Of a stretch of DNA of 64,000 nucleotides, positions 30,315-61,100 are shown one piece after another. Made by a program: the position numbers and the translations under genes. The notes under the pieces were generated by a model. It was not told the DNA's origin. It did no database searches and worked only from the letters and a program-made list of their open reading frames with translations. Origin of the DNA: Paecilomyces variotii (lineage: Eukaryota); the NCBI GenBank assembly GCA_004022145.1, contig RCNU01000006.1. One strand, written 5' to 3'. The stretch's first letter is position 1. Each line of letters starts with the position of its first letter.

Positions 30315-32498
30315 ATGGTATCCCTGGCCCCCGCTTCGGGTAAGCCTGGCACGGCGACCTCGAGACCCCCCTCGAAGATGGTAGTTTCATCCCCCGCGCC
30401 AATATTGAAAACATCCAAACCCGTCGATAACGCCGCCACCACGTCTGCGGGGACGAAGCGCAAGATGTCCGAGATGGACCTTTCTTCCTCTCCACCCTCG
30501 TCCGCTGCTTCGGATGCCGGCGGCGCTGGGCCTAGCCCGAAGAAGCGTGCAAGGGTCCAGTTTGATTCTGAAGTCAAGACGCGAAGTTTGCCGCCGAATG
30601 AAAGTATGAGTGGTTCGGAGCCAGAGAAGAGTGCTGCTGTTGTTCGGGAGGAGGTGCGCAGGGCGATCCAGAGACACCTGTCGGGCGCAGATAGTGAGGC
30701 GTATGATCGAATAAAGGAGATCTTTTCGGCCGATCCCAAGAAGATGGAAGAGGATGGGTCCTTGCCTTATGGCTTGCCCTCGCATACGACGTTGAAGCAC
30801 CATCTGATGGGTTTGCTGTCCAACGTCGCGTCGCTTGATAGGAACTGTACCGGTCTGGTTCATTCAGTGTTGGATAGCGAGTGGCTTGGAAGAGACGAGT
30901 CGTATGTCAAACTCTACATTCGATTTCTCGGAAATCTTGCTGCGGCGCAAGGAGGCTATTTGGGCTCCGTGCTCAAGATGCTGGTCGGCTATCTGGGCGA
31001 AGGTAAGAGATGCTCCTCCGCCCGTGTAGTTTGTTCTAGCTGACAGCTTCGCGGCACAGTACCCAAAGGCACCGGCAAACTACCAGGCTACCCCCGCGTT
31101 AACACCGCCGAAATCTACGCCAGAGTCCATATGGCACTCCGCTACATCATGAACTTGATCCCTGCTGGAAGTGGCGCCCTGTCACCCATCCTCTCCATGC
31201 AGTTTCCCTTTGACACCGACTCCGTCAAGGCCAACGTCGCCTACACCAGGAATCTCATCAAGGTCATCGAGTATACGCCCGAACTGCAGGCAGATATCCT
31301 CGCTCTCGTCACAGAGAAGCTCGTAAAGATCGATGTGCAGATTCAAGTCGATATGGAAGACATTGAAGATGAGGCTGGAGAAGACCTAGTGCAGGATATC
31401 GCCTCGCCGGAACGGATCGCTCTGGCCGATGACGACTCGGACGCAGAGTCTGTTGCGAGCGATGATTCAATCGACGTCGACATGCGCCAGTTAAAGGCTG
31501 TCAAGGACAAGATTCACAAGCTCGACTGCATGATCGACACGCTATTCGAGTACTATGCTCCGCCTTTCACTTCGGGTTCCCTGGATGACAAAGAGAACGC
31601 CCTTGATCTCCTTCTGAGCCATTTCCAGAGCATCATCCTTCCTACGTACCGCTCTCGTCATTCCCAGTTCCTCCTCTTCCATTTCTCACAATCTTCCCCT
31701 ATCCTTGTTGACCGCTTCGCCACTACTTGCATCCAACTCATCTTCAACAAGCTACAGCCGGGTATCACACGCCAGTCTGCGGCGGCATACCTCGCAAGCT
31801 TCGTCGCACGAGGTGCTCATGTCTCCAGCGAGGTGGTGCGCGATGTGTTTGACCTTCTGGGCACGCATCTGAACAATCTACGTTCTGAGTACGAGGAGGC
31901 TTGCCGTGGTCCCGATCTTCGACGGTATGGCCCGTTCTATTCCACTGCGCAGGCATTGCTCTACATCTTCTGCTTCCGCTGGCGTGATCTTACGACGGCT
32001 GCGCTCGAGAGTGACGATGCCAGCAATCTGGATGACATCGATCTGGAGGATGTTTCCTTCCCGATGTCTATCAAGGAGATCCTCCATCAGACCATCTACT
32101 CGAAGCTGAATCCGCTAAAGGTGTGCTCTCCCGCCATTGTGTCCGAGTTCGCTCGCATTGCACACCATCTTCGCTTCCTTTATGTCTTCCCGCTCCTGGA
32201 GACGAACAAGAGACTCCGTATCTCTTCGTTCCGCAGCATCTCAGCCATGGCCGATCCCCGCTTCAGCCAGATTGAGCGGGAGACCCGAGCTGGTGATGAC
32301 GGTGGCTACCAGCTAGATGCCTACTTCCCGTTTGATCCCTACCAGCTCCCGCGAAGCCGGCGGTGGTTGGAGAACGATTATGTCGAGTGGCGCGGCATCC
32401 CTGGAGTCGATGACCGCGACGATGACTCGGACAGCGAAGCGGATGAAGGTGAGGAGGATCATGACGACGTCGTCAGCACTGATGGCGAGGATGACTGA
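30315..32498 (+). CDS. RRN3: RNA polymerase I transcription initiation factor Rrn3; intron ~31002-31059
   Basis: EKLVKIDVQIQ, ILPTYRSRHSQFLLF, AAAYLASFVARG, QALLYIFCFRW, LNPLKVC and YFPFDPYQLP motifs. Confidence 0.93.
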
Positions 32499-35388: not shown

Positions 35389-36152
35389 TTAGTTGCCGCT
35401 GGTACTCGAGTTTGACATCTGGACAGCAAAGACTCCACCAAATGGACCGTTCTCATTGTTGTTGGAAACCTTGACCAGGCATAGATTGCTGATACCGTTT
35501 ATAGTGCCGGTGCAAGAGGTGCCGGCAGGGATCTCGACCGCGAATGGCTATTAATATGTTAGTCATGCTGCTCTGGATGACTTTGGGGGGGGGTTTCATG
35601 TCGTCAAGGAATACTTACATAGTCCTCATTGACGTTTTCAGCACGCTTGCTAAGAGGTTTGTACATGCGGTCCATCAACCAACGCTTCTTGTTGGGAGCC
35701 GCGATGAAGCCATTGTTGCCAGGGGGCTGAGTAGAGACAGTAGCCTGCTTGGCAGTAGACCACTTCCCAGAGGCAGATTCGTCAATCAGCGCTTCCAACG
35801 GACCGGCGCCATCAGTGGTAACGATGTGGTATGTGCCCTTGACAGACCCGCCGCTGCTGACCTGCGGCAGCGTGGAGCCTGACTGCGCCATAGCCTTGCT
35901 CAGGTCACTCAGCTGGTTGTTACCGGCCTCATCGGTGTATCCAATATCCTGATCGGTGCGGATATCTTTAGACCAGAAGACGGTCGTGTCGACCTCTGTC
36001 ATGTAGTTCGGGCCAGCTCCGGGGACAGCAGCTCCCCTGATACCGAGAGCAGTGCCATTGCCACCCTGGTCTCCGGTAACGACGGCCACCTTTCCGTGAG
36101 CTGCGACAAGGGGAGCTAGGGCTAGGGCGTAGAGGAAAGTTGAGGGGTGCAT
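35389..36152 (-). CDS. Secreted Egh16/GAS1-like (DUF3129) cell-surface protein; one intron ~35548-35618
   Basis: Signal peptide then His-Gly (AAHGKV), GGNGTALG, EVDTTVF, DGAGP; exon 2 PFAVEIPAGTSCTG..CLVKVSN..GPFGG. Confidence 0.85.
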
Positions 36153-38572
36153 TTTGTATTGATTTTTGCAGAGATTCGATTGGTTCTTGATTCAAAAAAG
36201 GTGAAAGGGTAATAATAATTGAAGATAAACTTAATGAACTTGATAATGACTGCTATATGTAGGAATGTAGTGATCCAAATAAAAAAAGAATGTCACGAAT
36301 CAATCGGACGATGAAAGAAAGAATCAGAAGGACTTGCTGTTCTGTGTGATGCTGAGCAGAAAATTGATGGATGGCATACACGATATTTATAACCTTTGAA
36401 TCACTCCCTTTCGATCTCCATCATCTTCGGTCGATGTCGCTGTCGGGTTTGTTTTACTCTAGCGCTCCATCACCATGTTTCCTAGTCAGTTTCAGCAGCA
36501 AGATTTCTAAGCCATTTCCTGCAAGCTCCTGTAAACGAAACGCCCCATTATTGATGATACTAACTGTGAGGTTTCCAGACTGGTCGAAGTAGGCGGTACT
36601 TTCCTTTACCATCATGCAGGGCGAAGTAGGTAGCCGAACGATCCGAACCCATACAGTAGGGAAGACCCATAAGGGAATGCAATAGTGCTTTCATATGTCC
36701 GTCGTTATAGAGATATCCAACCACAGCGCCACAAGACTCAATGGTGCGGTATCTCACCTATAGTCCGGCGCTGTCTCAAACAAGAATTCAGGCAAGACTT
36801 TGATTCTAGTCGGAGCTTTCACAATATCAGAGCCATTGGGGCGGTAGCTTTCTTTTCCGTCACGAGCTGTCCAAAGAAAAAGAAAGCATTCATCGCATAA
36901 ACGTTTCAACTGCACGTCCCTTCGGTTTTACCTGCAATAAGAGCTCTTCTCTTCGCTAGGCTGGCAGGTCTCTCTATCTGCTCGGATCGCGTTTCACATG
37001 ACTTGGACATGCGTGGCGTGTTGTTCTGTTTGTATTATCTCTTCCGGCGAAATAATAGATGCGAAGTTTGTTCTGGCATGTATGTCCGTTGTCGACATTT
37101 TTGAGATAGTGCATGATCTGTATGCCAATGATCGTTTCAAGTCACGCTCCAGACCCTTGCAAAGTAGAAAATTGATGGCTCCTCTCCGCCCATCCGCTCC
37201 CCTTCACCATGAAAGACCATCTGAACTGCGGCGCGTTTTGCTGTCTTCTAGACTTAAGAATATGTCCAATCTTAGGGGTACCCATGACTAGACATGTGGA
37301 TACTCCTTATGTTTTTGAGAGACAGTACAATTGATTAGTGACCTCGACTATTGTAGTCTGCAGCAGCGGGGAATACTTAGCGCGAGGACTCATTTCTTTG
37401 CATAAAATATCCAAACCCACCGCGACCGATTTATTTGTTGGACCAAAGAGTGAAGGCCATATCGATTACTGATGCGAGGCTCTCCATGTTGATGGTTGGT
37501 ATGTCTTGGTTCCATCTATTGGCGGCTTTCACGCTCGAACTTTGAGGACACAGTTTGATCTATGTGTCATGATCTCCCTATGCACGTCAAACAGTCTCGG
37601 CTACAAATGGGCTAAGGAAAGACGGATCAACAATCGGTCGGATAGAACCGAGATCGTACATACATCATCCCATAAGGATGGTGGATCCTTTTGCTCGCAA
37701 GCCAGGGAAGTCTAACCGAGAAGGTGAAACAGAATGTAACCAGCGTGTCTCTGGAGGTCAGTTTCAAATCTTTAACCGAAACACGATGTCGGACGAATGA
37801 CATGGATGTCTGCCGATATTAGTGTCTAGAGGAAACACCCGAAACAGGTCCATACTCGACAATCGGGATTGTTCTGAGAACCCCTTTGAGGTGGTTCGTA
37901 TGGAAGCATCGTTGGTGGGATACTATGAAAATTACTCGAATGGTCAAAACACCGTACTTATAGTCTAGGGGAAATTTCGGCCCAATGCATTGAGGGAGCT
38001 GCTCATGATGATCGCTTGGAACATGGCCTAGCCTCGAACTCGAGGGAAAAAAGAGAAGAAGCCCAAATTAATATGAACATAATATGGCACGTTTGGTTAT
38101 GAGATCCATTCAAGTTGACGGTACTTAACCCCTAGCAAGATTATTCAACAGCCTTACCGGAAATGGTACTTGCTTTCTGATCCGTCTATGCACAGGTTTC
38201 ATACTACCATTCTGCTAGGATCAATGTGGGAAGAGATTACGAAGAGCAATGGACTCAAGTCTTGGTTGAAAATATATTTCTCTTATGTTGGATGCTTCAT
38301 TGAGTCGTCCTAATTTACGAGACTACAATTCTTCATTTTCCATATTCAGCTGTACTCTTCGGCTCTCTTGCGCCAGTCCTTACTAAGGGGAAATGCCCAG
38401 ATTAGTCTCGCTACGATTTGTTGAGGAGCTATCAGTCCGATGTACCAGTGGAGGAAATGCCTCTCTCCATGTCATAATGGGTGCAGTCTTCCAATGATGA
38501 CCCCACATGGCCGTTTAGGCTGACATAGATATTCTATCAGCTGGCTTTCAATGTTCAACTAATATCATGGTG

Positions 38573-40825: not shown

Positions 40826-41410
40826 CGAACTTGGCAGTGTCTATGAGAGCTAATTGATCCATACGTGTCCTGCGGATGATTGATCTCTCTGCAATTTAAT
40901 CGAGTCTATGGCAGAGACCCTTGATCACCTCTAGCTTGCAATTTAGGGTCAAAAGAGAACCTGAGACCGTACCACGACGGAGTTACACGTACGGATGGAA
41001 AGGATACCCGAAAGGTTCGATAAGAGAGAAAACGAGACATAAATACGTGGCATTCATGGAGAATACAGGGGGAAACATGAATAGCTACCAAAGCAAGAAA
41101 ACATGTAATAGGCGTAACAGACATAACAGACATAACACGGCATCACTAAACACAAATCAACCGACAACGTCAGGGGGAATAACTGGGGAATCTGGAGATT
41201 TTCGACTCAATGGAACCCATGATCCGACCAAAGAAAACAGGTAAATGTAAATGCATCACCAAACATCACGAACAATTACAGGACCAGGTCGCCTAATGTG
41301 ATCCCATCCTCTTGGGACTTTCTTCTCTTATTCTTTAGTATTGGGTATTGAAGTAGACTGACCACGTAGGACGACAGAGATGCAAATGAAAAGGGAGTTG
41401 TCCTCGGGCT

Positions 41411-44275
41411 TTAATCCTCGAAGAAATGCAGAATTGCCCGGATACCCTTGGATCCTAGTCCATGGGGAGGGTAGGCAATATACAGTGGCTCTTCGTGCGC
41501 ACCCAGCTTCAAACGGAACTCACTCTTGCGAGTCAGGTGGAACTGGCGCACAACAGCCTCATAGGTGTGCTGCAGCACCTTGACCTTTGCTCCGCTCATG
41601 TGGTGACCAGGTCGAAGGTCGGCCGTGGCACCAGCACCGAAGGTGAGCGACTTGACGCCTGCCTGGGCCGCCGTCTGGATGGCATGAGTCACGATGTACT
41701 CGATGGTTCCGTTGGGCGCCCCGGGGAAGTCGAAACTGTACTTGACCTGCATACCGCTCTGGGGCGCTAGCTGCACCAGGGCCACGAAGGAGCAGATATT
41801 TCCCTCCTTATCTGTGGCATAGAAGTACCAGCGATGCTCCGAGTCGCGCCAGGGCTGGATCTCAGAAAGATGGATCTGAGTGCCCTTGCGGTTGGCCAAC
41901 CAGTCCTGAATGCGCTTGTCGATCTTCTTGCGTACCTCCTCTGACACCATCTCGCCCTGGGGCAGCGTTGTGATCTTGACACCTTCGTTCTCTGCGTGGC
42001 GGATCTTGCGGGAGATCTCACCGTCTGATGCCGCCAGGTTGCGAGCGGGATCAACCCGCTCCTCCGCGATACAGGACAAGGTGCGCCAGCCGAGCTTTTC
42101 CCCGAGGAAATCTTCGACTTGGGGAGAGATGAGAAGCCAGATGGGTTTGAGCTTCGTCTCGCGACGGAGCCAACCCAGGAACGCGTTGATAACACGACCA
42201 TACTGGCTGGGATCACAGAGCGGATTACCCGGAATGATAGCATAGCCGTGCATCGGGATATAGGAAACGGCGGCACCGGTCACGTAGTCCCGCCAGATCT
42301 TGTAACGCTCGTCGCCCCACGAGGTGGACGTGGCATCACCATAGTTAGCGATGAGGTGCTCTAGCGGCTGTAGCTGGTTATCGTCGGTAGCTTTGGCCGC
42401 CTTGTGCTCTTTCTGCCAGGCTGGCTCCAAGGTGGACGATTCAGGGTGCCGCAGCTGGAGAATCGGCGGCTTGGGAGGGAAGCTCTTGGGGTCGCGGTGG
42501 AAGAGCGAGGCCAGACGGATGTTGCCAATCTTGAGAATCAGCATCAGCATCCGCTCCAAACCAATCCCAGCACCAGCGTGTGGAGGCGCGCCCCAGCGGA
42601 ATCCCTCGAGATAGTCCTCCATGTCCTCGGGGCGGATGCCAGCCTTGGTGATGTTCTCCTCGAGCATTTTGGGATCGTGAATACGCTGACCACCAGACAC
42701 AATTTCCTGACCACGCACGAAGATATCGAACGAGTTGGTGAAACGGGGATCCTCTGGGTCGGGCATAGTATAGAAAGGACGCGCGCCGACAGGGAACTTG
42801 TCGAGAATATAGTAGTCGGTGTGGTACTTCTCCTTGACTAGCTCTCCCAGATGGATCTCGTCCCGGGTCGACAGATCCTCGTCATCCGGCAACGGCTGGC
42901 CGTCCTCAGTGCGCCACCCGGAGTCATTGAGCATGCGAATAGCATCCGCAAAGCGGATCACAGGGGTCTCGTCCAGCCAGACCAGGTCTTCGGAGGGGAA
43001 CTGATGCTTGACCACATCAACCTCGCGGCGGTATTTCGTATACAGACCCTTGAAGATATGCTTGATGGTGGCGTCAATGGTCTCAAGCATCTCATGGTAG
43101 TGTTCGTCAATGGCCATCTCGATATCCAGACCGGTATACTCCGTCAGATGGCGATGGGTGTTGGAATTCTCGGCACGGAAGACGGCGCCAATCTCGTAGA
43201 CGCGACCAAAGTCGGATGCGATAGCCATCTGCTTGGCCAGTTGAGGACTCTGAGCCAGGAAGGCTGGGCGGCCAAAGTAGTTCAGCTGGAAGACAGAAGC
43301 ACCGGACTCGGTGGCCGAGCCCTGTAGCTTGGGAGTATGGATCTCAATGAAGTCCCGGTCATTGAGAGCCTCCCGGAAGAGTTGAGAGATACCAGACTGG
43401 ATGCGGAATATACTCTGCGACGTTGGTGTGCGCAGATCCAGAATGCGATTCGCCAGACGGGTTCGATCAGGGATGTGACTGTGGCGGCCCTCGACGCGGT
43501 CTTCCTCCTCTGTGCGGACTTCGGCCTCGTAGACGCTGAAGGGAACGGTCTCCTCACGACGGACAATGACATGCAGCTGCTCGATCTCGAGCTCGACATC
43601 GTGGATAGTACATCCCAAGACGGGCACCTCCGGGGCCCGAACGGTACCCCGAACGCGCACAATGCATCCGGTGCGCAGATGTTCCGCCCACTGGACCATG
43701 TTGACTGATGCAACACCGGGTTTCTCATGGAGGACGCCTTGGAAGGTGGTGAGCTGATGACGGAAGACAAGGAAGACGAGCTTCGCGCTCATGCGGCGAA
43801 CGATATGCAACCGCGCAGTGAACAGGATCTGCTGGCCCACAATGTCCTTGGAGACCTTGTCCAGCGGAAATCGTGCCTCCCGTGGGCGCTCCTTTGACTG
43901 CAGAAGCGGCAGATCACCGTACCGTGCCTTCATCTCTGGAGTCTCTTGGCGCGCCGCTTCTTCTTCGCGCTCGCGGCGACGATGCTCTGATTCGGAGCGC
44001 TGCTCCTCACTGAGACGGGATCTGGCCTGGCGGCGCTGCTGTCGCACCAGGCGCTTCTGCTGGTTCTTGCTGACGCCGGAACTCGAGTCATCGGACACAT
44101 CGTCTGATGAGGAAATGTAGTCCTTGTCCCGTAGAAAGCCGACAATGCTGCGACGGGGCGACGAGATGGGCGATCGCGGGCTGCCGCCACTGCTACTGTC
44201 ATCGTGCTTATTGCTCGGCGTCAGCTTGGACAAAGCACGCTTGATGGACATCTTGGCCCACAGTCCACGGGGCAT
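41411..44275 (-). CDS. erdS: Aspartyl-tRNA synthetase fused to a C-terminal DUF2156 aminoacyl-tRNA transferase: ergosteryl-aspartate synthase ErdS (start could be the second Met, MSIKRAL)
   Basis: OB-fold plus class II motifs (FLAQSPQLAKQM, FRAENSNTHRHLTEY, GAGIGLERML), then ~350 aa DUF2156/MprF-like domain (GNPLCDPSQ, APNGTIEYIV, LTFG); intronless. Confidence 0.92.
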   Translation of the reverse strand: MPRGLWAKMSIKRALSKLTPSNKHDDSSSGGSPRSPISSPRRSIVGFLRDKDYISSSDDVSDDSSSGVSKNQQKRLVRQQRRQARSRLSEEQRSESEHRRREREEEAARQETPEMKARYGDLPLLQSKERPREARFPLDKVSKDIVGQQILFTARLHIVRRMSAKLVFLVFRHQLTTFQGVLHEKPGVASVNMVQWAEHLRTGCIVRVRGTVRAPEVPVLGCTIHDVELEIEQLHVIVRREETVPFSVYEAEVRTEEEDRVEGRHSHIPDRTRLANRILDLRTPTSQSIFRIQSGISQLFREALNDRDFIEIHTPKLQGSATESGASVFQLNYFGRPAFLAQSPQLAKQMAIASDFGRVYEIGAVFRAENSNTHRHLTEYTGLDIEMAIDEHYHEMLETIDATIKHIFKGLYTKYRREVDVVKHQFPSEDLVWLDETPVIRFADAIRMLNDSGWRTEDGQPLPDDEDLSTRDEIHLGELVKEKYHTDYYILDKFPVGARPFYTMPDPEDPRFTNSFDIFVRGQEIVSGGQRIHDPKMLEENITKAGIRPEDMEDYLEGFRWGAPPHAGAGIGLERMLMLILKIGNIRLASLFHRDPKSFPPKPPILQLRHPESSTLEPAWQKEHKAAKATDDNQLQPLEHLIANYGDATSTSWGDERYKIWRDYVTGAAVSYIPMHGYAIIPGNPLCDPSQYGRVINAFLGWLRRETKLKPIWLLISPQVEDFLGEKLGWRTLSCIAEERVDPARNLAASDGEISRKIRHAENEGVKITTLPQGEMVSEEVRKKIDKRIQDWLANRKGTQIHLSEIQPWRDSEHRWYFYATDKEGNICSFVALVQLAPQSGMQVKYSFDFPGAPNGTIEYIVTHAIQTAAQAGVKSLTFGAGATADLRPGHHMSGAKVKVLQHTYEAVVRQFHLTRKSEFRLKLGAHEEPLYIAYPPHGLGSKGIRAILHFFED

Positions 44276-45590
44276 TCACACGGGATTGAGTTGCGAGGGA
44301 TATCGAAGGGTATCGAAGGGTATAAGGTATAAGAAAGATGAGAATCAACGTTGATGCGGACCGGGGACTGGAGTAGGCGGGCTCTTTATGATGTAGGAAG
44401 CGACTCTAGGGCCGGGAATAGTTAGTTAGTTAGTTAGTTAGTTGAACAGCCTTAATCAGCGAACGCAGACAATCAGGTTAACTAACTAGTTAACTAACCT
44501 AGGTACCCCTTCTCAGACGGATGTTCTAGGCAGCCGAAACCGATTTTCAGATTCGCTATCGGCCTCGGTTGCAATGCGGGCCCGACCCAGATCAACCGTT
44601 GGGAGGGAGATGGCAATAATAATAATCGTGGTGGCACAGCTTTTCTGGTGCACGATTGGAAATCAATGAACCAAAAAAAGAAAACAGAGAGGAAAGAATA
44701 TGATGCTTTGTTATTCTGGAAAATGAAGATTGTATTATTACTTATTGCGCGGGAGCAATTTGCGGTTTTATTGACTGCGTGCGGCGGGCTTTTCACAGAT
44801 GATGTCAACCACCGGCGCTTTATGTCATGAAGAGCGACAGGAACAAGCAGTAAAAGACAAGAAAAGACAAGAAAAAGAATCAGGCAAAAGCGACCGGCGG
44901 GCTTGGCGAGCAGGAAAACGAGATCGAGGCCGATACTTACTGGAAGCGGATGCAAATGAGGATAGTTAGTTAGAGCGTCCTTACCAATCAAGCCGGTTTT
45001 GGTGCAGAATGCGATGGCGGACATGCCGGATGTTGATGCGATCGATTAAGTATTATTATTATTATTATTATTATTGTATCTCAGCTTAGATACTTCCCCC
45101 TCTCCCTTTCTCTCTCTCTACTCTCTCTCTCCCCCTTCTGATGATTACTATTATTCAGAATCGATCCATTGATTGCCGCCTTCCCACTAAACAGTTACAG
45201 CTGGAACTGTTGCTATAATTAATTAATCCTTACACGACCCCGCCCACTGATTACTACAGATTGGTTTAATAGGGCTTACCGTAGTTACGCATCCAGGGAA
45301 GCACTCAATTGCATTCTGTATTCCTGGCCTGATCGACAGCCAGACGTGAGATGTAAGTACCTTTGGAAAGTCCCTTTTCCCCCCCATCCCAGACTAGTTT
45401 ATCTATCTGGATCTTTTGCCAAGGCGTGCCGGCACGTCTCTAACTCCGTCCAGTCATGTTGCCAACACGCTGACCGTCCCCAAATAATCTCCCTCCTGTC
45501 TGTCCTCAGTCTGTCTGGCCATACGAACGCTGCATTATTATTGCACCAACCTATCTTCTTCTTGCTGGGTCGTCACCTGCACAAGCGGCC
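44276..45590. promoter_or_regulatory. Shared divergent intergenic/promoter region of erdS and erdH, with (GTTA)n (~44420-44443) and (ATT)n (~45051-45075) microsatellites
   Basis: Head-to-head gene arrangement; repeats read directly from the sequence. Confidence 0.6.
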
Positions 45591-46601
45591 ATGGCCGTCG
45601 CCCGCTGGTGGCTTTACACCCAAGCCATTTTCTGGCGCTTTCTCATGCGCATTGGCATGTTCTTCCACCATGTCATCAGCCCGCGCTCTCCATCTCCAAC
45701 CTTTACGCGCAGCATTCCCTGCCAGGACAGCAGTCGGTCCATCCAGCTGCACTTCTACTGTCCCGAGGACTATGCAGACCAGCGGAAAGCCGGTCGACGG
45801 CTCCCCGTCGTCGTCAACTTCCACGGCGGAGGCTTTGCTCTAGGCCGTGCGACAGACGATGCGCGTTGGGCCCAGACGGTTGTCTGTGAGCTCGGTGCGG
45901 TTGTCGTCAGTGTCGACTATCGACTTGCTCCCGAGAATCCGTTTCCCGCCGCCGTCGACGACGGCGTCGATGCCCTGCTCCATCTTGCCAGCAACGCATC
46001 CGATCTGGGGATCGATGCTTCTCAGGTCATCCTGACCGGCTTCTCCGCTGGAGGCAACCTGGCCGTCACCGTTCCGCTCCGTCTCCGCCAGGTCCGCGGT
46101 GAGGCCCGGCCCGAGCTGCATCGGTACGAGTCGACGCAACAGCTCCTCGATGCCACCAACGAGCTCCACGTCGTGGCCATCTTCTCGTGGTATCCGATCC
46201 TCGACTTTGTGCTGCCCCGGGAACATCGTCGTGCCATGAGCATTCTCCCCGAGAAGACTCTCCCGTCCTTCTTCACGAACCTCTTCGACGAGTCCTACGT
46301 GCCCAACCGCGATGACCGCACCTCCCCCTATGCCTCACCCGCGCTGGCCACAGACCAGCTGCTGGCCGAAGCGCTACCGCACAACGTCTTCCTCTACATG
46401 TGCGAGTGGGACATGTTGCTGCGCGAAGGTCAGGTCTTTGTCCGCCGCCTCCAGGGATTAGGCAAGAAGGTGCGCGCCATGATGATCGAGAAGGTCCCGC
46501 ATGCCTGGGACAAATCGCCCAATCCGTTCCGCGATCAGGACAGCGTCAACGTGCTTTATCGCGAGGCTTGTGCGGAGATGAAGACGTTGCTAGAAAAGTA
46601 G
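45591..46601 (+). CDS. erdH: HSL-family alpha/beta hydrolase, ergosteryl-aspartate hydrolase ErdH
   Basis: NFHGGGF oxyanion motif, VDYRLAPE, GFSAGG nucleophile elbow, EWDML and VPHAWD; divergent from erdS as in the described locus. Confidence 0.85.
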   Translation: MAVARWWLYTQAIFWRFLMRIGMFFHHVISPRSPSPTFTRSIPCQDSSRSIQLHFYCPEDYADQRKAGRRLPVVVNFHGGGFALGRATDDARWAQTVVCELGAVVVSVDYRLAPENPFPAAVDDGVDALLHLASNASDLGIDASQVILTGFSAGGNLAVTVPLRLRQVRGEARPELHRYESTQQLLDATNELHVVAIFSWYPILDFVLPREHRRAMSILPEKTLPSFFTNLFDESYVPNRDDRTSPYASPALATDQLLAEALPHNVFLYMCEWDMLLREGQVFVRRLQGLGKKVRAMMIEKVPHAWDKSPNPFRDQDSVNVLYREACAEMKTLLEK

Positions 46602-47065
46602 ATTTTTCTTTTCTTTTCTTTTCTTTTCTCATTTCCGTCTTTCTACGCTCGTACCTAACTATCGCTACACGCGAGAGTTCCCTTTCTCTCTTCCAGCATC
46701 GTTCTCCCGGGTCCGAGACCCGTTCTTTCCTCACGTACATGCAGCGTCTACGAATTGATGTCTCTTCCGCGGTATATCGATGGCGTCTTTGTCTGGTTCC
46801 TTTCTCGTCTGGCGTCGGGTGTCGTTATTTGATCAAGAGCATAAGATCCAGCAACTGCTGCGGCAGGCAGCATTGCAGCATCGTCTATCTCTCTGTATGT
46901 ACATACATACTACCGCCGCCCTTGGGCCATGAGGGATGTTGCCAATAGACCTGGTATACAAGGTCGATTAATTGTCTCCTCATGTCTGTCTAGCTTATCT
47001 AGTCTGCAGTAGTGTAGTCCTAATCAGAATACAAAGTGTACATATACGAATCAATCTCGTAGCCC

Positions 47066-48681: not shown

Positions 48682-49764
48682 TCACTTTGACCGCATCTTA
48701 TAGTCCCTACAAAGTGCTTCCTCTCTCGTGGTCAGTTCGAAACGAAATGTCTTGTCCCACGCCCTTCTGGCCGCGTAGTCAGCCAGGTAATTGCCTGGCA
48801 CATCTCGATGCGCAGGGACCCAGTGGAGTTCAACTGACACGAAAAGAGAAATCAAGACGTTTGCGAGCTCAATTACTTCCTCCACCAATATATTCGTGCC
48901 CTTCTGTTTTGCCCTTGTAAGATGCAGGATCATCCTCAATGCCTCTTTGCAATCGGAATAAATGACGAGGATTTCTTGCTCTCCGTGAGCACCGTTGGAG
49001 ATTCTCTCGACGGCCTTATCATAGGCGATCTGTAGAGCTCGAAGGATGGCCAAAAGCTCAATATCCGGACAACCCATGTCTCCATGAACTTTGTATCCTA
49101 GGATCTTCCACGAAAAAGGGGATCCTTCGTCCGTGGATTTGGACACAACTGCAACCCCGGCGGCATTTTTCCGATCCAGGTGTTGCGCAACAGAACCATC
49201 AACCCAGTATACGGTACGGTTGCGAATTCTTCCTCGTAACCTATATTCAGACAAAGCGTATGCTAAAGCCTGGATATGAGTTTGGATGATGACACTGCCC
49301 GCAAAAAGTGGAAGATCATCCTCATCGCGCAAAGACATAAGCGATGATTGTCGCGGCTGCTGTTGTCCTTCAGGATACCGATATCCATCAGGAAGTACCA
49401 TGTCGTCTAATTGAATACCATCCTTGAGAATCTGCTGGCGAATGATCTGTATTTCGTCGAGAGAACAAGCCTCTTCCAAAAGCAAAGTTTCCCGGTTCGT
49501 CGAGAACCTCGGCTTCTTGTATTTTAGTTTCGTGTTATGATCGGGAGAAATCTTTCTCTTTCTCGAAGCCCGCCTTGATGAGGAAGAGACGCTAGCTTCT
49601 GGAAAGGACCGACCTGTATCACTGTGAGTCCTAAGGGGATCGACAGTATTGACGCTGCTCTGGTCTGTCATACCTTTCACATCGGAGCGCTTGGGAACAT
49701 CTGTAGTACTAGTGTCTGGAGAGGCTGGAGTTGACGCTGATAAGACTGATGAGAGATTACCCAT
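48682..49764 (-). CDS. Stand-alone RNase H-like domain protein
   Basis: YWVDGS, AGVAVV, IELLAILRAL, IYSDC and ELHWVPAHRDVPGNYLADYAAR; all four acidic catalytic positions present; disordered N-terminus with NLS-like RKRK. Confidence 0.82.
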   Translation of the reverse strand: MGNLSSVLSASTPASPDTSTTDVPKRSDVKGMTDQSSVNTVDPLRTHSDTGRSFPEASVSSSSRRASRKRKISPDHNTKLKYKKPRFSTNRETLLLEEACSLDEIQIIRQQILKDGIQLDDMVLPDGYRYPEGQQQPRQSSLMSLRDEDDLPLFAGSVIIQTHIQALAYALSEYRLRGRIRNRTVYWVDGSVAQHLDRKNAAGVAVVSKSTDEGSPFSWKILGYKVHGDMGCPDIELLAILRALQIAYDKAVERISNGAHGEQEILVIYSDCKEALRMILHLTRAKQKGTNILVEEVIELANVLISLFVSVELHWVPAHRDVPGNYLADYAARRAWDKTFRFELTTREEALCRDYKMRSK

Positions 49765-50845
49765 GATGAGTGCAAGTAGGAAAAGGACAGTAGGACGTGG
49801 TTCAGTTAGATGAAAGAAATAAATTTGAAGATGAGAAGTAGATAGTGAGAAGGACAGTCAATAGAGTGACAAGGAGTTTCGCTTATTGTGTTTGTTCAGG
49901 AATAGGCTTAGTGACATATATGAAGATGCCTAGGGAGCAGTGTGGTGAAAGTGTTGCTGAGTTAACTACCCTTGGTACCTTCGACAGTAAGAGCGAATCC
50001 CCACTCACAGGGAAACAATCAGCCTACTCAGATGCTCTGGACTGTCTGATATCTCAGAGAAGAAGTTCCTCAAAGGCTGCCCATGTTTCCATGTTTATGT
50101 TGCTCCTTTAGAGCACATGACAAAGAAAGCGCAGCAGAGGAGAGGCCTTTAGAGTATCGACATCGTAACGCCTGTATCTCCTCCAGATAGATATAAGCCA
50201 GAAAACAGTCCCGCTTCCGTGTGACTATTTTCCTTTTCACCTTTGGAAAAGTCTCATAACTCATTTAGAGTACAGAGGCAATTACAGTTCCAGAAATATA
50301 CTACTAAACACCGGAGCCACAGAAACATTACAGCCACATTTCAGAGTCATATGACCACCGGAACAAGGGGATGTGGAATAAGTGACTCTCGCCGACAGAT
50401 TTTCACCAGGAAGATCTTATGTGATTATTAACGCGTATCGCTGCTGTCTATAATGAGCATGTACAGATGTGCTATGCTGAGGATGCGCATAACAGACTGG
50501 CGGAAAAACCGCAGCGCTAGCTCGCATAAGTCGATTGAAATGGACTGTGCTATATCGAGCATGACTGGTATAGTCGGCAGATTCGATATGATACCATTAT
50601 GGTAGGAACGAGGCTGCACCCTAAGCGATGATATTGACGACCATGTGAATACCGGAAGTCTGCGGATCGACAGGGCGGAGGACAGCTAACGTATTAAATA
50701 CGTTCCTCTCATAAAGCGTAGCAAGAGAGAAGAGTCTCTTAAGGAGATAAAAAGAAGTTCTGCATTATCTGAACCGAACAAGATATGAGTCAAATATACA
50801 TGGAAGTCGAGAATATAAATAGTCCGGAATATCGGGCTCCATCAA

Positions 50846-52582: not shown

Positions 52583-54526
52583 CTAGGACGTCTTAGGAAG
52601 AGTTTCTCTTAACGCCCGCGGTGAGATACTCTTTACTTCACCCGTCGTCGGATCCAGCTCGAAGAGAAACTCGTCAAGTCCCACATTTCCATAGTTAGAC
52701 TGGTCTACTAGCTCCCAGGTTGAACAAGATTTGGTGAAGGGACCTGTTCCAGAACCTGCATCCGACGGTGACACGAAGATAGCTCTGAATGAAACTTGAG
52801 ATGGGGTGCGCAGCCCTGTAGGGTTAAGGTGGATGACTGGATTGGAGATACCCGAGAGAGCAGACGATGATACGACATCGAACATGTCCACGGAGTTGCT
52901 GATCCATTTATCAACTCTCAAACCGGGACCGTCATCTATGGAGATCGAGATGGAGGAATTGCTTGTCGCCGTAACAGACTCGTAGGTACCAGCATAAGTT
53001 GTGTTCGCTTCAACTTTGGCTGCCTGCTCAAGAGCAGGGAGTAGTTGTGCGGAGATGAGATTGGAGAGCACAGCAACAAGACTTGTTGTGTCATCGCCTG
53101 CAGCGAGGATCGTGAACCCTACCCCGTGGTCTGGTGACAGGGCTGTCGATGATGAATAGCTTCCAAAGTCTCCAGCTTTCGTGTACAGGTCAATCACGCG
53201 CCCGTTTCCTTGAAAGCTGTATATTTCCCACGGTGCACCCACGGAGGAGTCGATCGAGCCTGTGTGGGTGACTGGTCTCATCCATCGCCGAGTCAGGGCC
53301 GGAGAGATCAGTGTGTTATTCAGTATGGCTCGGCCGAGCGTAGTCATATCTTTCGTTGAGGAATACAGACCTCCGGCTCTATGTTGAAGATCCAACGATA
53401 CTTCTAGTCAGACAAATAAGAGAGTTTGTATAGAGAGATTCCCACTTACGGAGTTTCATCACCTGCAGGTATATTCCATCCACTTGACGTCGCATCGCCT
53501 GGAATAACTCCGTACTGATCAGGTGGTGTGGAGATGTATGATCTGGTCATGTTGAGAGGCTCGAGAATGTGTTTAGATAGCAACGACCCGTATGTATGCC
53601 CTGATATAGCTTCCAACACATACGAAAGAATCTGAATGGCAGCATTGGAATAGATCGGTGTGAACGATGTTGGAGCCATAGGATGTGTCTTCGTTATCCC
53701 TTCAAAGAACTCTGGCCAAGGCTAGCAGCTTCATGAGACGAATCCAGATGATTCATTTGTACGTACGAGACCTGTTGCACGGCGCGATGGAGCCACAAGG
53801 AGGTATTTCAGATTTTGGAAGTTGGGGAAACCCATATTTCGTCAAGGAAGGGGCGGTAAGAGACAAGTCCAGGAATCCGTCTTGATCTTCGTGTTAGAAC
53901 TATTCATGATATTTATTGTAGAAGAGGGCTACTGGAGACATCCGTATACGTATAGGAATGAACTTACAGTCTCTGCCCAGACCAGCCAGATGAGATGCTA
54001 GCTCAAGTACAGTTATATCTTCCCATCTTGTGAAATCAACTAGGACATTCCTTTCAGTGGTATTTCCAGCTGTGTTGCGGGCAGCCTTTCGCAGTTCGGG
54101 GATATATTCGGTGATCGGATTGTTGAAGTGTTTTTCACCATCAGCGATTAGGAACAAGAGAAGCGTCCAGAGCTTTGATCCACTTCCAATTCGAAATACA
54201 GTATCCTCGTCAACGGTATGTACACCACTTGAAGCGTTACTCGTTAATGGTGCAGTGTGATAATATTCAAATAGCGGGTTGGTTTTGGAAGCCGAATATA
54301 TTTGAATGGTGAAAGAGTTGGTATCGTCAAGGATAGAAGAGGCGGACGAATTCGCCGCCGCCTGGACGAGCTCATCAAGTGTCTGAGTTATATTCCGAGA
54401 TGCGATGTTGAATGCTTCTGATGTGACTGGATTGACAGCGGGTGGGAATACAGGTCCAAGAAGGGGGCAGTATTGAACTGCCTCCGCAGTGGCAAGGACG
54501 TATGAGAATAGCAAACTTCTTTTCAT
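52583..54526 (-). CDS. Secreted beta-lactamase / serine-peptidase family protein, multi-exon
   Basis: Signal peptide, CPLLGPVFP, FRIGSGSKL (SxxK), LASHLAG, PIYSN, GGLYSS, GAPWEI and YTKAGD motifs across introns. Confidence 0.87.
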
Positions 54527-54903
54527 ATTGAATTGACGGAAAATATGGATGGATTAGAACGCAGAAAGGAAGTAGAGAATTCCGATGAAGTAGCCCAATT
54601 CTATTGAGATATAGCTGTCTAAGTCAATATTTATGTCGCTTGAAACCCCCAAAGCATCCTGCGCCTGTCTATTTATATGCGAGATGCCCAATAAGATTCC
54701 ATCTAATACGAAGTATACCACAAGGCGTCCAGCTACACTACCTACTTTCTCACATGATACGTCAAAAACATCCGATTTGGCCAATCACGATACTGTTAGG
54801 ACGTTAGCGAGAAGATCTAGTCACTGAACGACACCAAGAAACCAGTGGAGGCTTAGCTCCTACTCTAGTATGGACTATGGAGTATGGAGTAATTACATGG
54901 GAC

Positions 54904-55120: not shown

Positions 55121-58100
55121 TAATGTTGGCATTGAGTTAAGTCCAAGCTCAACTCGGCTCCGAGGCATGATTGGAGCTAAGGAGGCGAGAAGTAACAGGT
55201 GGGAAGTTGCCAGCACTCGACCTACCTAACTAATTACTTAGTTTCACTAGTCTAATTTCGCGTTATTAGGGGGTTGGCTAAAGGTATCCAAAGCTATATA
55301 TTAGGCTTAGCCCATTACATTAGTAGAGCAATATAAAGAATAAAATAAGTTTATAATATACTCCATAAATTAATTCCTGACCTTATTCCATCCTATGTTA
55401 TAGGGTATTAATTCGCGGCCGTAATTTTGGGCGATTTTGGCGGGCGATTGGCGCCCGACCCGGGGTCGGGCAGGATATAAGTTACCATACTAGGTTATTA
55501 TTCACCAATGATTGACCTAACTAGCTCTTACCTCCAGGGCTGAAGCTAATTATTGCTTATTCGGGCCCCCTCAGATGAGGCTCACTTCCTTTGCCACTTC
55601 AGCTCCTTAAAGTCTTTAATATTGCCTGCTAATCCTTCTCGCCCGATTTTGTCTTTGAATACAATACAGAGACTGAGGCAGCATGCGTGACACCGGAGGA
55701 GGTTTCAACGAAAGAGAGGCTAAGCGACCCAAGTACGAGCCAGGCCAGGATTTGCTGCGATCATCAGCACTGAAGGCATTTACCCATACCGACTACACAG
55801 TGGGATGGATCTGTCCACTACAGATAGAGCTTATTGCAGCTCTCGAGATGTTGGATGAGGAGCATGCAAAGCTGCCGCAGCAACCTGCGGACCACAACGT
55901 CTATCATTTGGGTAGTATTTCAGGCCATAATGTCGTTATTGCCGGGATGTGGCAGGCTGGAAATCCTACAGCCGCAACCGTCGTTGCACAGATGCGAATG
56001 ACATTTCCCAATATCCGATTTGGCCTGCTGGTTGGCATTGGAGATGGCGTCCCCGTTGTGACAGAACATGGGATGATTCGACTTGGCCATGTGGTGGTCA
56101 GTAAGCCAACAGGGCAGTCATCTGGTGCTATCCAATATGACCGTGGAAAGGCGGAAGATGGTATATTTGTGCGAACTGGCGCTTTAGCTCTGCCACCGCC
56201 AGTTCTCCTTCTGGCTGCAGATTCCCTAGGCGCCCAGCGTGCTCGTTCAAGAGAAGACCCATTGCTACAGAACATCCAACGTATTGACACCAGCCTCCCT
56301 GGGCTGCGCTGCTATAAATTCCCCGGCAACAACAAAGACTACCTTTTTCCGGCCGAATACAAACATCTTCGTCCTCGAACATCATGCGAGGCGGGTCAAT
56401 GTGACCTATCCCAACAGATTTTTCGGGATGAAGACGAGATATATGCGGCAGATAAGTGGATTACCGTTCATCGAGGCACGATCGCTTCTGGGGAGGTCGT
56501 ACTCAAGGATGCCGTGAAGCGAGATCTTCTAGGCCAAGAAAGTGGAGTTCTATGCTTTGAAATGGAAGGTGCTGGCGCATTAAGTGATTTTCCATGTCTT
56601 GTGATCCGCGGCATCTCAGACTACTGCGACTCGCATAAGAATGACGAGTGGCATGGCTTTGCTTCAGCTGCCGCGGCTGCCTACGCGAGGCAGCTCTTTT
56701 TTCACATGCCGATAGACAAGGTAAGGTAGTGAGCATAATACATTCCCAATTCCTGCACCGATACACTGACTAATTATAGAAGCTAAGTCTAGTACCTGTT
56801 GACGATCCTGGGATAAAGAGGATAGTTGGAAGAAGCGATGACGAGGAACGACACAAAATTGTCGAATGGATTTCATCAACCAATTACACAACCTCCCAAG
56901 CTGACATTCTGTCTCAAAGATGTGAAGGAACTGGACAGTGGCTACTAGACGTACCCGAATTTGGTGATTGGGTAAAGAAGAAAGGAATACTCTATTGTCC
57001 TGGCATTCCTGGAGCTGGAAAAACTACATTGGTGTCTATCGTCATCAACCATCTTCAAGAGATCTTTGCCAAGAATCAACAAGTCGTTGTTGCGTATATC
57101 TTCTGTGACTATCGAGAACAATCTAAGCAGAAGCTGAACAACATACTTGGAGCGATTTTGAAACAGCTTGTCCAGCCAATGGAAACCCTCCCAGATGATT
57201 TGAACATGTTATACAAGTCTCATCAAGCCACTGGATCAACACTGCAGAGGAATGAGCTGACCGAGCTACTCATTTCAGTCGCAAATTACTACTCTCGGGT
57301 TTATCTTGTCATCGACGCATTAGATGAATGCCCAGACTCGGATGGAACACGGAGTACATTTATATCTCATCTACTCAAACTTCAGAAAAACTGCAATGTC
57401 AATCTCCTCGCAACTTCAAGGTTCATTCCAGATATAACGGCGAGGTTCGGACATTTCCCTTCCGTGGAGGTCCGAGCTAGCGATGCAGATGTGGCGTTGT
57501 ATACAGAGGGGCGTATACATGAGTTCAACTGTGTGCGAAAAAACCCAGCACTTTCTAAGCTTGTTGTTTCATCCATTACCAAGACCTCTGATGGAATGTA
57601 GGATTGCCCTATGAAGATTAAGCCTACCTTGCGGCGGAAAATTTGGCTTACTTTATACCTAGGTTCCTCCTCGCAAAGCTCTACTTGAATTCCCTGAAAG
57701 GTGAACCCTCTGTCAAATCGATCAAATCTGCTCTCAGCAGACTCCAATCTGGGTCAGGAGCATATGATAATGCATACCAAAAGGTTATGGAGCGAATTGA
57801 GCATCAAATTGCTGGACAGGCAAGTCTTGCTAAGAGATTGTTATCGTGGCTTACTTGTGCCCGGCGCTCCCTCACTTTGACAGAGCTTCAACATGCTCTT
57901 GCTGTGGAGACTGATCAGAGCTTTTTTGATGAAGAGAATCTTCCAGACATTGAAGACATGATCTCTGTCTGCGCTGGCTTAGTGACCTATAGCGAAGAAA
58001 GCCATATAATTGCGCTGGTTCATTACACGGCAAAAGAATACTTTGAAAGAGAATGGTCTTCCTGGTTTCCCCATGCCCAGGGTAATATAGGTAGGATATG

Positions 58101-61100
58101 TGTGACCTATCTCTGCTATGACTCGTTTGAATCTGGATGTTGCGAGACATTGGAAGATTATGAAGAGAGGTGTCGTCGATATCCTCTCTACAATTATGCC
58201 GCATCGAACTGGGGTTTCCATGCACAAAGGCAACGCCTTGATCACGAGCTTGTTTTTCAATTACTGGAAAATGATAAAAAGCGAGCAGCATGTGCGCAAT
58301 CTCTGATTTGGTCCGATCATACCTACGGGATCGAGTTTTGGAAAATCCCCAAAGATACCACAGCGCTCCAGCTGACGGTCGAGTTGGGCCTTCTCTACGA
58401 AACAGAGTACCTACTAAAAAGTCACCATGATGTTAATGTCCACTCAGATTTCTTCGACACTCCGATTATAACGGCCATTAGTAGTGGCAACGAAGACTTG
58501 GTACGCCTTTTGCTCCGCCACGGGGCGTGTCCTGGCGATATGAGTGATTTTGGAGCAACTTTGGTCTCCATTTCAGCAAGCATGGGTCATGAGGCTCTCC
58601 TCGGCCTCGCCCTCGAACTGGGTGTAGATCCCGAACTTGGTGACAGGAATGACCGCAGCCCTCTCTCATATGCAGCGGAAAATGGCCACGTCAAAGCCGC
58701 TAAGATGCTGTTAGATGCAAAAGCAGATATCGAAAGAAAGGATAAATGGAATGGTAGGACACCCTTGGCCTGGGCAGCTGCCAACGGCCAACAGGCTGTT
58801 GTCCGTCTGTTACTTGAAGCAGGTGCTCGACCTGATACTAAGACCACCGGAAGTGCGATATATCACGTCGCGCGGACACCTCTTTCTCTCGCTGCCCAAA
58901 ACGGAAAGAGAGAAGTCGTGGAGCTATTACTGGAAAAAAATGTTGATCCAGACGAACCCGATGCCAACGGTCGAACGCCACTTTCGTGGGCTGCCGGGGA
59001 GGGCCATCTAGATATAGTCCGAGATCTCCTCGCCGCGGGTGCAAATATAGATCGAATGGATGCACCGAAAGATGGGTTGCTGTGTTTTGGTCGTACGCCG
59101 CTGGGATGGGCAACGCGCTCGTCCCAACAAGCTGTCGTTGAGCTTTTGCTGGAAAAGGGGGCGAATCCTAATTCATTTACTGAGGAGTCACCATTATCAA
59201 CTGCTGTCCAATCAAAAGATGCGCAGTTGGTTGAGCTGTTACTCAGATATGGAGCAGATCCCAACCCAAATAATCGTCTGCGTCATTCAGACATTCTTGG
59301 ATATGCCATTCTTGTCAAGGACAGAAGGATGCTAAGATCTCTGGTGAGATATGGGGCCCAACCTGAAGCTACTACGACTCGTGATGATGCATTATCATGG
59401 GCGGCTAGGAAAGGTCATACCTTGTTTGTCGAAATGCTTCTAGAAGAGGGTGCTGATATCAATACGAGAGACCCACAAAGTGGAGATACTCCCCTATCAT
59501 ATGCTGTGATAAACAAACACGAGGAAGTCGCTGCACTCCTAATCGAGAAGGGAGCTGGTGTTGATGTCCAAGATTGGAATAACCAAACAGCATTGTCAAA
59601 GGCAGCAAAACGAGGAACCACAAACGTGGTCACGCTCCTGCTTGAGAGAGGCGCAAATATCGGATCCAGAGATAACTTCGGCCAGACACCACTTTTTCAT
59701 GCCCTCGAGCATGGGAACGAGAGAGTCGTTGAGCTTCTACTCGAGAAAGACCCTACTCTATTCCACAGCCGCGATGAGGTTGGCCGTAGTGCTCTCTTGA
59801 TTGCTACAGAGAATCGACTGGAGGCAGTCCTGCGGCTTACTAGAGAGACCCAAGAGCATTCCGAGATACTTACTAGGGAGCTGGGAGCCGTTCTCCGCAC
59901 CATATCCTCGCCACAATACGATCTAACGCAGAGCAAGAGCAGGAAATTATTTCTATGGGCGGCTAAATATGGTCACATGGAGGTGATTGAATTTCTAGCG
60001 GGAAAAGGCATCAGTTACGTCTGCGAAGATGAGTTTGGAACAACATCTTTAAATTTGGCTGTCAGAAACAGCCAAGCTGCTGTGATCGAATTTTTACTGA
60101 AGGAAGGTATTCAGCTAAATACGGTAGATGGTTCAGGCTACGCTCCGCTTTCATGGGCTTTTATCGACAATAATGATACCATCGCTTGCTTTCTATTGTC
60201 AAAAGGTGCAGACCCTCATAAACCCGTCAAAATTAGACCAAGTCTGAATGCCGGGCGTCTGAATTCCCCTTTATTCTTGGCTGTCAGACGAGGATTCGAA
60301 AGAACTGTTAAACTCCTTCTGCAAATGGGGGCCGATCCAAACTCGTCTATCACCGTTGGGTCACAGTTTGATGTATTGTCTCTGGCACAATGTATCCCTG
60401 GGAGTGTCTTATCCACTGCTGTAGGCAATGGAAACTACAGCATCGTCGAGGCGCTCTTAGATCGCGGTATCGATAATGGTCTCTGTCATGATAGCCTTAT
60501 CTTGGCAATGCAGTTCCGCGATACGCCGCTTGTTTCTCTCATCATGCGAAAGGGAATTCGGGAAAATTGGCTAATTGAAGAATATGGACAATCTGTCTTG
60601 TTCTGTGCAGTATTTTTTGGTCATATTGATGTGGTGCAAAGCCTGCTGGATGCAGGCATGGACGCCAATACGCGGCCCACAAAGCGTTCTATTGACTTTC
60701 CCCGAAGAAATAGAAGGAGGGGGCAGCATTGGGAGCAGCGTGCGGGTGGAAATGTCACTCCATTGCGGTTTGCTGCGCAGGAGGGTCACGAGGCGGTCGT
60801 TAGAGCCCTTCTGGACAAGAAAGCGGACCTGGATGTCGGATCACCATTGCAGTGTGCAATCGATCATGGCCATGCAACAGTGGTCGAGCTCTTGTTGCAA
60901 CATGGAGCGAGGATGGATATTCAAGATCGTGGCTCTCTTCTCTTGCAAGCCGCCCGAAAAGGTCATCATGACTTGCTCAAATTTTTACTCAGAAAGGGTC
61001 TCCATTCGGAGTCAGAAGCCTCTAATAAAGGGTGCTTAGTCCTTGAAGCGGCCTCAAACAAGCATATTGATGTCGTTCGTGTTCTCCTTGAAGAGGGGAT

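Follow-up and report, generated by a model that had tools for sequence, protein, structure and literature searches.

Ergosteryl-aspartate synthase (ErdS) of Aspergillus fumigatus has been shown experimentally to make ergosteryl-3β-O-L-aspartate (Erg-Asp) (PMC7334510, PMC13219428), and cryo-EM structures of the enzyme, with an account of its catalysis, were reported by Murayama et al. (Nat Commun 2026, PMC13219428). Its companion, the hydrolase ErdH (AFUA_1g02580), loses Erg-Asp hydrolase activity in the mutants S153A, D277A and H307A (Yakobov et al., PNAS 2020, PMC7334510). In A. fumigatus, the Erg-Asp cycle has effects on hyphal growth, on sporulation and germination and, probably, on stress tolerance (PMC13219428). 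The two genes lie divergently at a single locus in A. fumigatus, A. oryzae, N. crassa and most fungi examined, and are ‘interspaced’ in some (PMC7334510). Here we describe two open reading frames (ORFs), erdS and erdH, at positions 41411–46601 of a contig segment from Paecilomyces variotii (RCNU01000006.1; the window, meaning the whole stretch of 64,000 nucleotides analysed). With high confidence, based on sequence comparison, we regard them as orthologues of the known ergosteryl-aspartate synthase/hydrolase pair.

A first-pass annotation of this DNA had read the locus as an ErdS/ErdH writer–eraser pair that was already described rather than new. Domain content, orthology, functional residues and gene arrangement all support the first of these statements. 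The second is also correct: the pair has been known since 2020 (PMC7334510), was extended in 2022 (PMC8913301), and has had a structure since 2026 (PMC13219428). Judged from its sequence, the P. variotii copy is a standard, intact version of that system. A literature search for ErdS in Paecilomyces yielded one paper, and that on another fungus; the supplementary orthologue lists of two papers (PMC13219428, with 98 orthologues, and PMC7334510) may already include P. variotii.

ORFs were listed using the standard code and ATG starts. The erdS ORF occupies 41411..44275 on the minus strand, with 954 codons from the first ATG to a TAA stop at 41411–41413, and erdH occupies 45591..46601 on the plus strand, encoding 336 amino acids from ATG to stop. 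The two are divergent (head-to-head), as had been proposed for an esterase of the hormone-sensitive lipase (HSL) type next to a synthetase, and the locus limits proposed earlier coincide exactly with their outer ends. The spacer between them measures 1,315 bp (44276–45590), or 1,339 bp if translation of erdS begins at Met9 (ATG at 44251). GC content is 0.54–0.63 across the two ORFs, versus 0.34–0.49 in the flanks and spacer.

The erdS frame joins a complete aspartyl-tRNA synthetase (AspRS) to a C-terminal transferase module. Pfam places tRNA-synt_2 at residues 271–594 (42494..43465, minus strand; E = 2.8e-76, 257 bits), covering profile positions 3–306 of 308. This is the class II catalytic core, and it contains the blocks QSPQ, FRAE...RH..E and GxGIGLER. 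Further along the same frame, LPG_synthase_C (PF09924, formerly DUF2156) matches residues 647–935 (41471..42337, minus strand) with an E-value of 3.5e-15 and 56.3 bits, against a cut-off of 27.5. The whole C-terminal transferase module spans about residues 602–954. Thus, the proposed check for tRNA-synt_2 plus DUF2156 finds both profiles in one frame, and no stop separates the AspRS from the roughly 350-residue DUF2156 part, as the first-pass annotation had stated. An OB-fold anticodon-binding domain of the AspRS part is placed at residues 155–236 (43568..43813, minus strand), by a Pfam tRNA_anti-codon match together with alignment to yeast AspRS (1asy). It is preceded by an N-terminal extension rich in Ser, Arg and Lys (residues 9–140; 43856..44251, minus strand), delimited by alignment to PDB 9w9f_A.

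The closest solved protein matches from end to end. Residues 1–947 of 9w9f_A, A. fumigatus ErdS, align with residues 9–954 of the erdS protein without large gaps (1708 bits), and 9w9g_A and 9w9e_A align likewise (1684 and 1609 bits). The deposited name of all three chains is ‘Aspartate--tRNA ligase, cytoplasmic’. We identify them as A. fumigatus ErdS because their numbering reproduces all residues named in PMC13219428. Given the E-values and this 1708-bit, end-to-end match to a solved protein of 947 residues, the domain and homology matches are not due to chance. Yeast AspRS (1asy, residues 5–490) aligns with residues 116–601 of the erdS protein (E = 1.6e-138), and yeast and human AspRS score about equally against it (466.5 and 461.7 bits). 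When the erdS protein was aligned with 28 unfused fungal AspRS, 148 of the 482 columns of the AspRS part were invariant. The QSPQ, FRAE...RH..E and GIGLER blocks, which are class II synthetase motif blocks, were largely so.

Residues named as functional for A. fumigatus (Afm) ErdS in PMC13219428 are retained in P. variotii at 27 of 29 positions. We placed the Afm numbers by hand on the 9w9f alignment, with an offset of +8 up to Afm 667 and +7 beyond. Conservation was counted over 121 sequences, namely the erdS protein and its 120 listed relatives. The pocket for the tRNA CCA end, with the proposed catalytic residues, comprises W785, R789, K790, G791, Q793, H795, F913, R914 and K916 in Afm ErdS (PMC13219428). 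All nine are identical here (W792, R796, K797, G798, Q800, H802, F920, R921 and K923), and each is present in 120–121 of the 121 sequences. Fifteen of the 16 sterol-pocket residues also equal those of Afm ErdS, the exception being Gln719 at the position of E712. A third element, the positively charged α(+) helix between the two GNAT folds of Afm ErdS, abolishes activity when mutated at four positions, the quadruple mutant being ‘dead’ (PMC13219428). Three of its four residues are the same in P. variotii (R756, K757 and R759 for R749, K750 and R752), and R753 is replaced by His760.

In Afm ErdS, a helix with an xSKxxLKKxx-like motif clamps the tRNA elbow (PMC13219428). The extension of the erdS protein holds VSKNQQKRLVRQQRR, which aligns with this clamp helix (Afm residues 59–73), and VSKNQQKRLV faces LSRNQQKRLA of Afm ErdS in the sequence alignment alone. 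Five of the 10 elbow-contact residues are identical by hand-read alignment (N62, K65, R69, S77 and E81). Among the others, R61 is replaced by K, E70 by Q, and both Q84 and H92 by R, and D87 falls at a gap.

The divergent neighbour fits the same identification. Pfam assigns residues 74–306 of the erdH protein to Abhydrolase_3 (PF07859; E = 8.6e-47), which bears out the proposed HSL-type esterase, and its relatives in PDB belong to the HSL family of esterases, human hormone-sensitive lipase among them (7.8e-22). The protein is 64% identical over 334 residues to P0175 of A. fumigatus Af293 (339 aa), whose Ser153, Asp277 and His307 face Ser152, Asp274 and His304. These are the published triad positions of Afm ErdH, so the expected match to Aspergillus ErdH is found, just as the erdS protein matches Aspergillus ErdS over its full length. 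On the plus strand, the HGGG oxyanion motif (residues 78–81) is encoded at 45822–45833, the GFSAG nucleophile Ser152 at 46044–46046, Asp274 at 46410–46412 and His304 at 46500–46502. Nine motif and triad positions (HGGG, GxSxG, Asp and His) were checked across the erdH protein and 119 listed relatives, and all were invariant (120/120). A further N-terminal segment, RWWLY.QA.FWRFLMRIGMFFH, is largely conserved among the aligned relatives and also occurs in A. fumigatus ErdH. The protein collection already holds an identical 336-residue sequence; therefore, the single-exon model of erdH agrees with existing gene calls.

How the pair works chemically, how the tRNA is handed over and what role the pair has in the organism are inferred from experiments in Aspergillus and Neurospora described in the papers cited. 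If the P. variotii proteins act alike, the AspRS half of ErdS would activate aspartate and load it onto tRNA(Asp). Gripped by the N-terminal helix and the α(+) helix, the tRNA would not be released; instead, its charged CCA end would swing into the fused double-GNAT (DUF2156) domain. In this domain, His802 (Afm H795) would serve as general base, deprotonating the 3β-OH of ergosterol, and Arg921 (Afm R914) would stabilize the transition state, with release of ergosteryl-3β-O-L-aspartate. ErdH, as an HSL-family serine esterase with the putative triad Ser152/Asp274/His304, would hydrolyse the Asp–sterol ester, and the two enzymes would jointly set the level of the modified sterol.

We then compared the erdS protein with its relatives. 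For residues 600–954, the best 120 of 629 relatives were listed from candidates of 524–1670 aa, a length range that leaves out free-standing DUF2156 forms. All 120 contain both PF09924 and PF00152, and their lengths are 763–973 aa. The best match to the erdS protein is a 946-aa ‘hypothetical protein’ of P. variotii, identical at 944 of 946 positions (99.8%) and differing by T732S and V781I. Full-length identity is 86% to the relative P0004, 79% to Rasamsonia emersonii and 74.5–76% to six named Aspergillus proteins, among them those of A. udagawae, A. pseudoviridinutans, A. flavus and A. nidulans. The value is ∼76% for ErdS of A. udagawae and A. pseudoviridinutans, both close relatives of A. 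fumigatus.

Database names obscure this relationship, as the first-pass annotation had predicted when it warned of automated mislabelling. Just one of the 120 listed erdS relatives bears the name ergosteryl-aspartate synthase; many rows are nameless, and the remaining names are ‘aspartyl-tRNA synthetase’, ‘nondiscriminating aspartyl-tRNA synthetase’, ‘Nucleic acid-binding OB-fold’ and ‘hypothetical protein’. Similarly, two of the 120 listed erdH relatives are called ‘putative ergosteryl-3beta-O-L-aspartate hydrolase’. Again many rows lack a name, and the others read lipase, esterase, alpha/beta hydrolase, catalytic protein, or hypothetical or uncharacterized protein.

Two in-frame ATGs are available for the start of erdS. 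The upstream one (44273–44275) lies eight codons ahead of Met9 and adds MPRGLWAK; it has T at −3, a poor context. The ATG of the conserved Met9 (MSIKRALSK...; 44249–44251) has A at −3. The eight-codon extension recurs as MSRGLWAK in P0004, the 86%-identical relative, while the other listed orthologues begin at the second ATG. Annotated relatives and the solved protein begin there as well, and we take Met9 as the probable start, giving a protein of 946 aa.

Linkage of the two genes is common in other fungi. Among the listed relatives, erdS and erdH have consecutive locus tags in nine named species: Rasamsonia emersonii, Talaromyces atroroseus, Thermoascus crustaceus, Aspergillus nanangensis and five Penicillium (P. 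desertorum, P. hispanicum, P. herquei, P. verhagenii and P. sp. IBT 31633x). For A. tanneri, the two tags differ by nine. We also scanned metagenomes with an ErdH alignment and obtained 80 loci, 36 of which were informative, with 4 kb or more of sequence ahead of the ErdH-like gene on its upstream side. At 19 of these 36, ErdS lies upstream on the opposite strand with both its AspRS and DUF2156 parts present (two pairs among the 19 are exact duplicates), and ErdS was found in no other arrangement at any of the 36 informative loci.

Both genes are represented in RNA libraries. Seven runs recorded as RNA contain 50% or more of the words sampled from 41000–47000, and contigs from four RNA libraries, from four studies, cover erdS and erdH. 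These contigs may include DNA, and they give neither strand, level nor true RNA ends. In X10, a single-organism transcriptome, three overlapping contigs tile 41098–44292 with no differences and include the whole erdS frame, and two more, at 45504–45671 and 45707–46594, lie inside erdH. No skip-type (intron-like) joints occur in either gene in the contigs of the four libraries; the only three joints found are all of the ‘opposite strands’ type, in one contig each. A single X1 contig spans both genes, which may be DNA and is no proof of a single transcript. Separately, the sequence of this locus is also present in food and food-fermentation metatranscriptome libraries.

Loose ends of these contigs hint at 3′ ends ∼0.4–0.5 kb past the two stops. 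Beyond the erdS stop, contigs carry poly-T loose ends before 40873 (X13) and before 40877 and 41028 (X14); beyond the erdH stop, poly-A loose ends stand behind 47048 (X13) and 47047 (X14), so that two runs from two studies contribute. The corresponding 3′ untranslated regions (UTRs), which this faint signal makes probable, would be 40873..41410 (minus strand) for erdS, where contigs extend beyond the stop, and 46602..47048 (plus strand) for erdH. Another poly-A loose end, behind 44700 (X14), was discounted because a genomic A-run adjoins it at 44673–44680. A poly-T loose end before 46755 (X14; one contig, one run) suggests a minus-strand RNA ending within the probable erdH 3′ UTR, i.e. convergent overlapping transcription.

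The spacer at 44276..45590 presumably serves as a bidirectional promoter and contains the 5′ UTRs of both genes. It includes three simple repeats, (TAGT)6 at 44419–44443, (TAT)8 at 45051–45075 and a CT run at 45100–45131. X10 provides no cover in bins 44712–45413, and contigs end at 44292 (X10), 44302 (X13) and 44405 (X14); we do not regard these stops as usable evidence of transcript ends. Short, low-depth RNA-library contigs lie inside the spacer at 44499–44689, 44788–45041 and 45187–45346. ORFs in or beside it, at 44497–45024 (minus), 45223–45840 (plus) and 46316–46945 (plus), have no Pfam match at E ≤ 0.1, and on sequence grounds we treat them as non-coding. At L001, L002 and L004, the metagenome loci closest to this one, the rough spacers between tblastn matches are 0.6–0.85 kb, versus 1.3 kb here. 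A conserved spacer element was sought by counting 8-mers of the spacer described here that recur in spacers at 16 metagenome loci (out of the 19 positive ones). It gained no support, as the counts did not exceed those of 200 shuffles: four 8-mers occurred in at least six loci (shuffle mean 1.6, maximum 7) and two in at least seven (mean 0.6, maximum 4).

We used the AspRS part by itself (residues 120–601; 42473–43918, minus strand) as a query, with full-length ErdS outside the length filter and the best 120 matches listed. These consist of shortened or partial ErdS-like forms and of unfused AspRS, mostly from Basidiomycota, at 51–54% identity. The named, unfused, full-coverage AspRS among them come almost exclusively from Basidiomycota (Cryptococcus, Kwoniella, Rhodotorula, Schizophyllum and others), and no canonical ascomycete AspRS is present among these best 120. 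Going by these matches, the synthetase half of ErdS may be closer to the ancestral Dikarya AspRS than are the ascomycete housekeeping copies.

Several observations weigh against reading the locus as an ErdS/ErdH pair. The OB-fold match in the AspRS part (E = 7.6e-4, 19.8 bits) does not reach its cut-off of 27. Two functional positions differ from Afm ErdS, E712 being replaced by Gln, which occurs in 10 of the 121 orthologues, and R753 by His, which occurs in 44 of 121; given these frequencies, both positions are naturally variable. A second, canonical AspRS always accompanies ErdS (PMC7334510, PMC13219428), and no unfused AspRS of the same species is found among the best 120 matches to residues 120–601. 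No ErdS is seen in the available flanks, up to 7 kb upstream, at 17 of the 36 informative metagenome loci (L010, L015, L024, L025, L032, L042, L048–L050, L054–L056, L058, L064, L066, L077 and L078). The ErdH-like genes at these 17 loci have best-segment identities of 38–55%, and may be paralogous esterases or represent lineages in which the two genes lie apart. With 19 of 36 loci positive, 17 negative and none in another arrangement, adjacency of the genes is frequent and orientation-specific, but not universal. The limits on the RNA-library contigs noted above belong on the same side of the balance.

One rival reading is a plain cytosolic AspRS that works in translation and carries a C-terminal appendage, next to an unrelated lipase. 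Most database names say as much (‘aspartyl-tRNA synthetase, cytoplasmic’, ‘lipase’, ‘alpha/beta hydrolase’), the AspRS motifs of the erdS protein are intact, and Afm ErdS does complement a yeast dps1 deletion, albeit poorly (PMC13219428). Yet the appendage is a full PF09924 domain that retains all but one of the 25 residues named for the pockets and for catalysis, its A. fumigatus orthologue is an experimentally established Erg-Asp synthase (PMC7334510, PMC13219428), and the neighbour is orthologous to a proven Erg-Asp hydrolase (PMC7334510). Moreover, ErdS is reported to keep its tRNA sequestered and to occur always alongside a second AspRS (PMC13219428). A purely translational role is thus highly improbable. 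Less improbable, though still unlikely, is a shift in substrate, with ErdS mainly making another aspartylated 3β-hydroxysterol, such as an ergosterol precursor or derivative, or ErdH acting mainly on other esters. ErdS is able to aspartylate cholesterol as well (PMC8913301), the sterol pocket departs from that of Afm ErdS at one residue (E712Q), broad specificity is frequent among esterases of the HSL family, and the numerous PDB relatives of the erdH protein are generic esterases. Set against this, the pocket agrees with that of Afm ErdS at 15 of 16 residues. Gln at E712 is shared with the minority of orthologues counted above, mutation of E712 in Afm ErdS has slight effects only (PMC13219428), and ergosterol is the main fungal sterol (PMC7334510).

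A switch of amino acid, for example to glycine as in ErgS, with the AspRS half vestigial, is scarcely credible. ErgS is indeed a paralogous DUF2156 enzyme present in Eurotiomycetes (PMC8913301), but it is free-standing, whereas the transferase domain of erdS is fused to an AspRS with intact catalytic motifs. That domain (query residues 600–954) is 75–77% identical to fused ErdS in the listed Aspergillus rows, all of its CCA-pocket residues are those of Afm ErdS, and clade and specificity correlate in this family (PMC8913301). One variation on the identification as ErdS concerns the two in-frame starts and the His at the R753 position, which together could yield two forms of the protein and a pH-sensitive tRNA hand-over. 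Such an arrangement would offer an extra way of tuning ergosteryl-aspartate in a heat- and stress-tolerant mould, absent from the Aspergillus models. It is very doubtful, however: nothing found requires it, T at −3 gives the upstream ATG a poor context, and His at the R753 position is common among the orthologues. An orthologue of ErdS paired with ErdH remains the reading that we adopt for the locus.

The neighbourhood of erdS and erdH is an ordinary fungal chromosomal context. A tRNA scan of the whole window returned no tRNA genes, including any linked tRNA(Asp). A 391-codon frame at 48685–49857 (minus) has a lone RNase H domain at residues 214–366 (PF00075, 5.7e-08) following a long Ser-rich N-terminal part, and Pfam reported no reverse transcriptase or integrase domain in it. 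Nearly all of the 1,362-codon frame at 57622–61707 (plus) is made up of ankyrin repeats, and a GPI inositol-deacylase winged-helix domain lies close to its beginning; the frame is presumably similar to the repeat arm found in NLR-like proteins of fungi. Other Pfam neighbours are an Egh16-like protein (35607–36191, minus), a beta-lactamase-fold serine hydrolase (52586–54553, minus; spread over two frames, probably by an intron), RRN3 (31044–32495, plus) and WDR3/Utp12 (5917–8559, minus).

The main value of these results lies in annotation. Labels such as ‘AspRS’, ‘hypothetical protein’ and ‘lipase’, which conceal both the use of a tRNA outside translation and a cycle of sterol modification, can be corrected for this locus. 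The pair may also be a candidate for the study of spore germination in a food-associated mould. The known ErdS/ErdH mechanism is left unchanged by the copy described here.

Comparison with related systems places the locus clearly. Bacterial MprF/aaPGS enzymes likewise have the PF09924 transferase fold, divert aminoacyl-tRNA to a lipid and are encoded beside a hydrolase gene. The bacterial enzymes, however, have an N-terminal membrane domain, draw aminoacyl-tRNA from the cellular pool and modify glycerolipids, whereas the N-terminal 600 residues of the erdS protein are AspRS and its acceptor pocket is the sterol pocket of ErdS. No MprF-type membrane (flippase) domain was found with Pfam, no transmembrane predictor having been run, and residues 1–601 are made up of the extension and the AspRS. 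Ergosteryl-glycine synthase, ErgS, is closer, with a homologous DUF2156 domain, the same sterol as acceptor and dependence on charged tRNA (PMC8913301). It differs in that it is free-standing and uses Gly-tRNA(Gly) made in trans (PMC8913301), while erdS is fused to AspRS in one ORF, and for that reason its product falls outside the definition of ErgS. Canonical cytosolic AspRS, such as yeast Dps1 (1asy), can be aligned with residues 116–601 and has the same class II motif blocks, but lacks the ∼350-residue transferase domain and hands its Asp-tRNA to translation.

The nearest counterparts are those of A. fumigatus. ErdH of that species and the erdH protein have in common PF07859, HGGG and GFSAGG, the triad positions and a similar length (339 and 336 aa); the difference between them is one of sequence divergence only, and activity is predicted from sequence for the P. 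variotii protein. A. fumigatus ErdS (AFUA_1g02570) and the erdS protein have the same order of N-terminal extension, AspRS and double-GNAT DUF2156 domain, comparable lengths (947 aa versus 946 or 954) and the same divergent position relative to erdH (PMC7334510). They differ in genus, in the divergent, Ser-rich N-terminal 60 residues, and in the replacement of E712 by Gln and of R753 by His.

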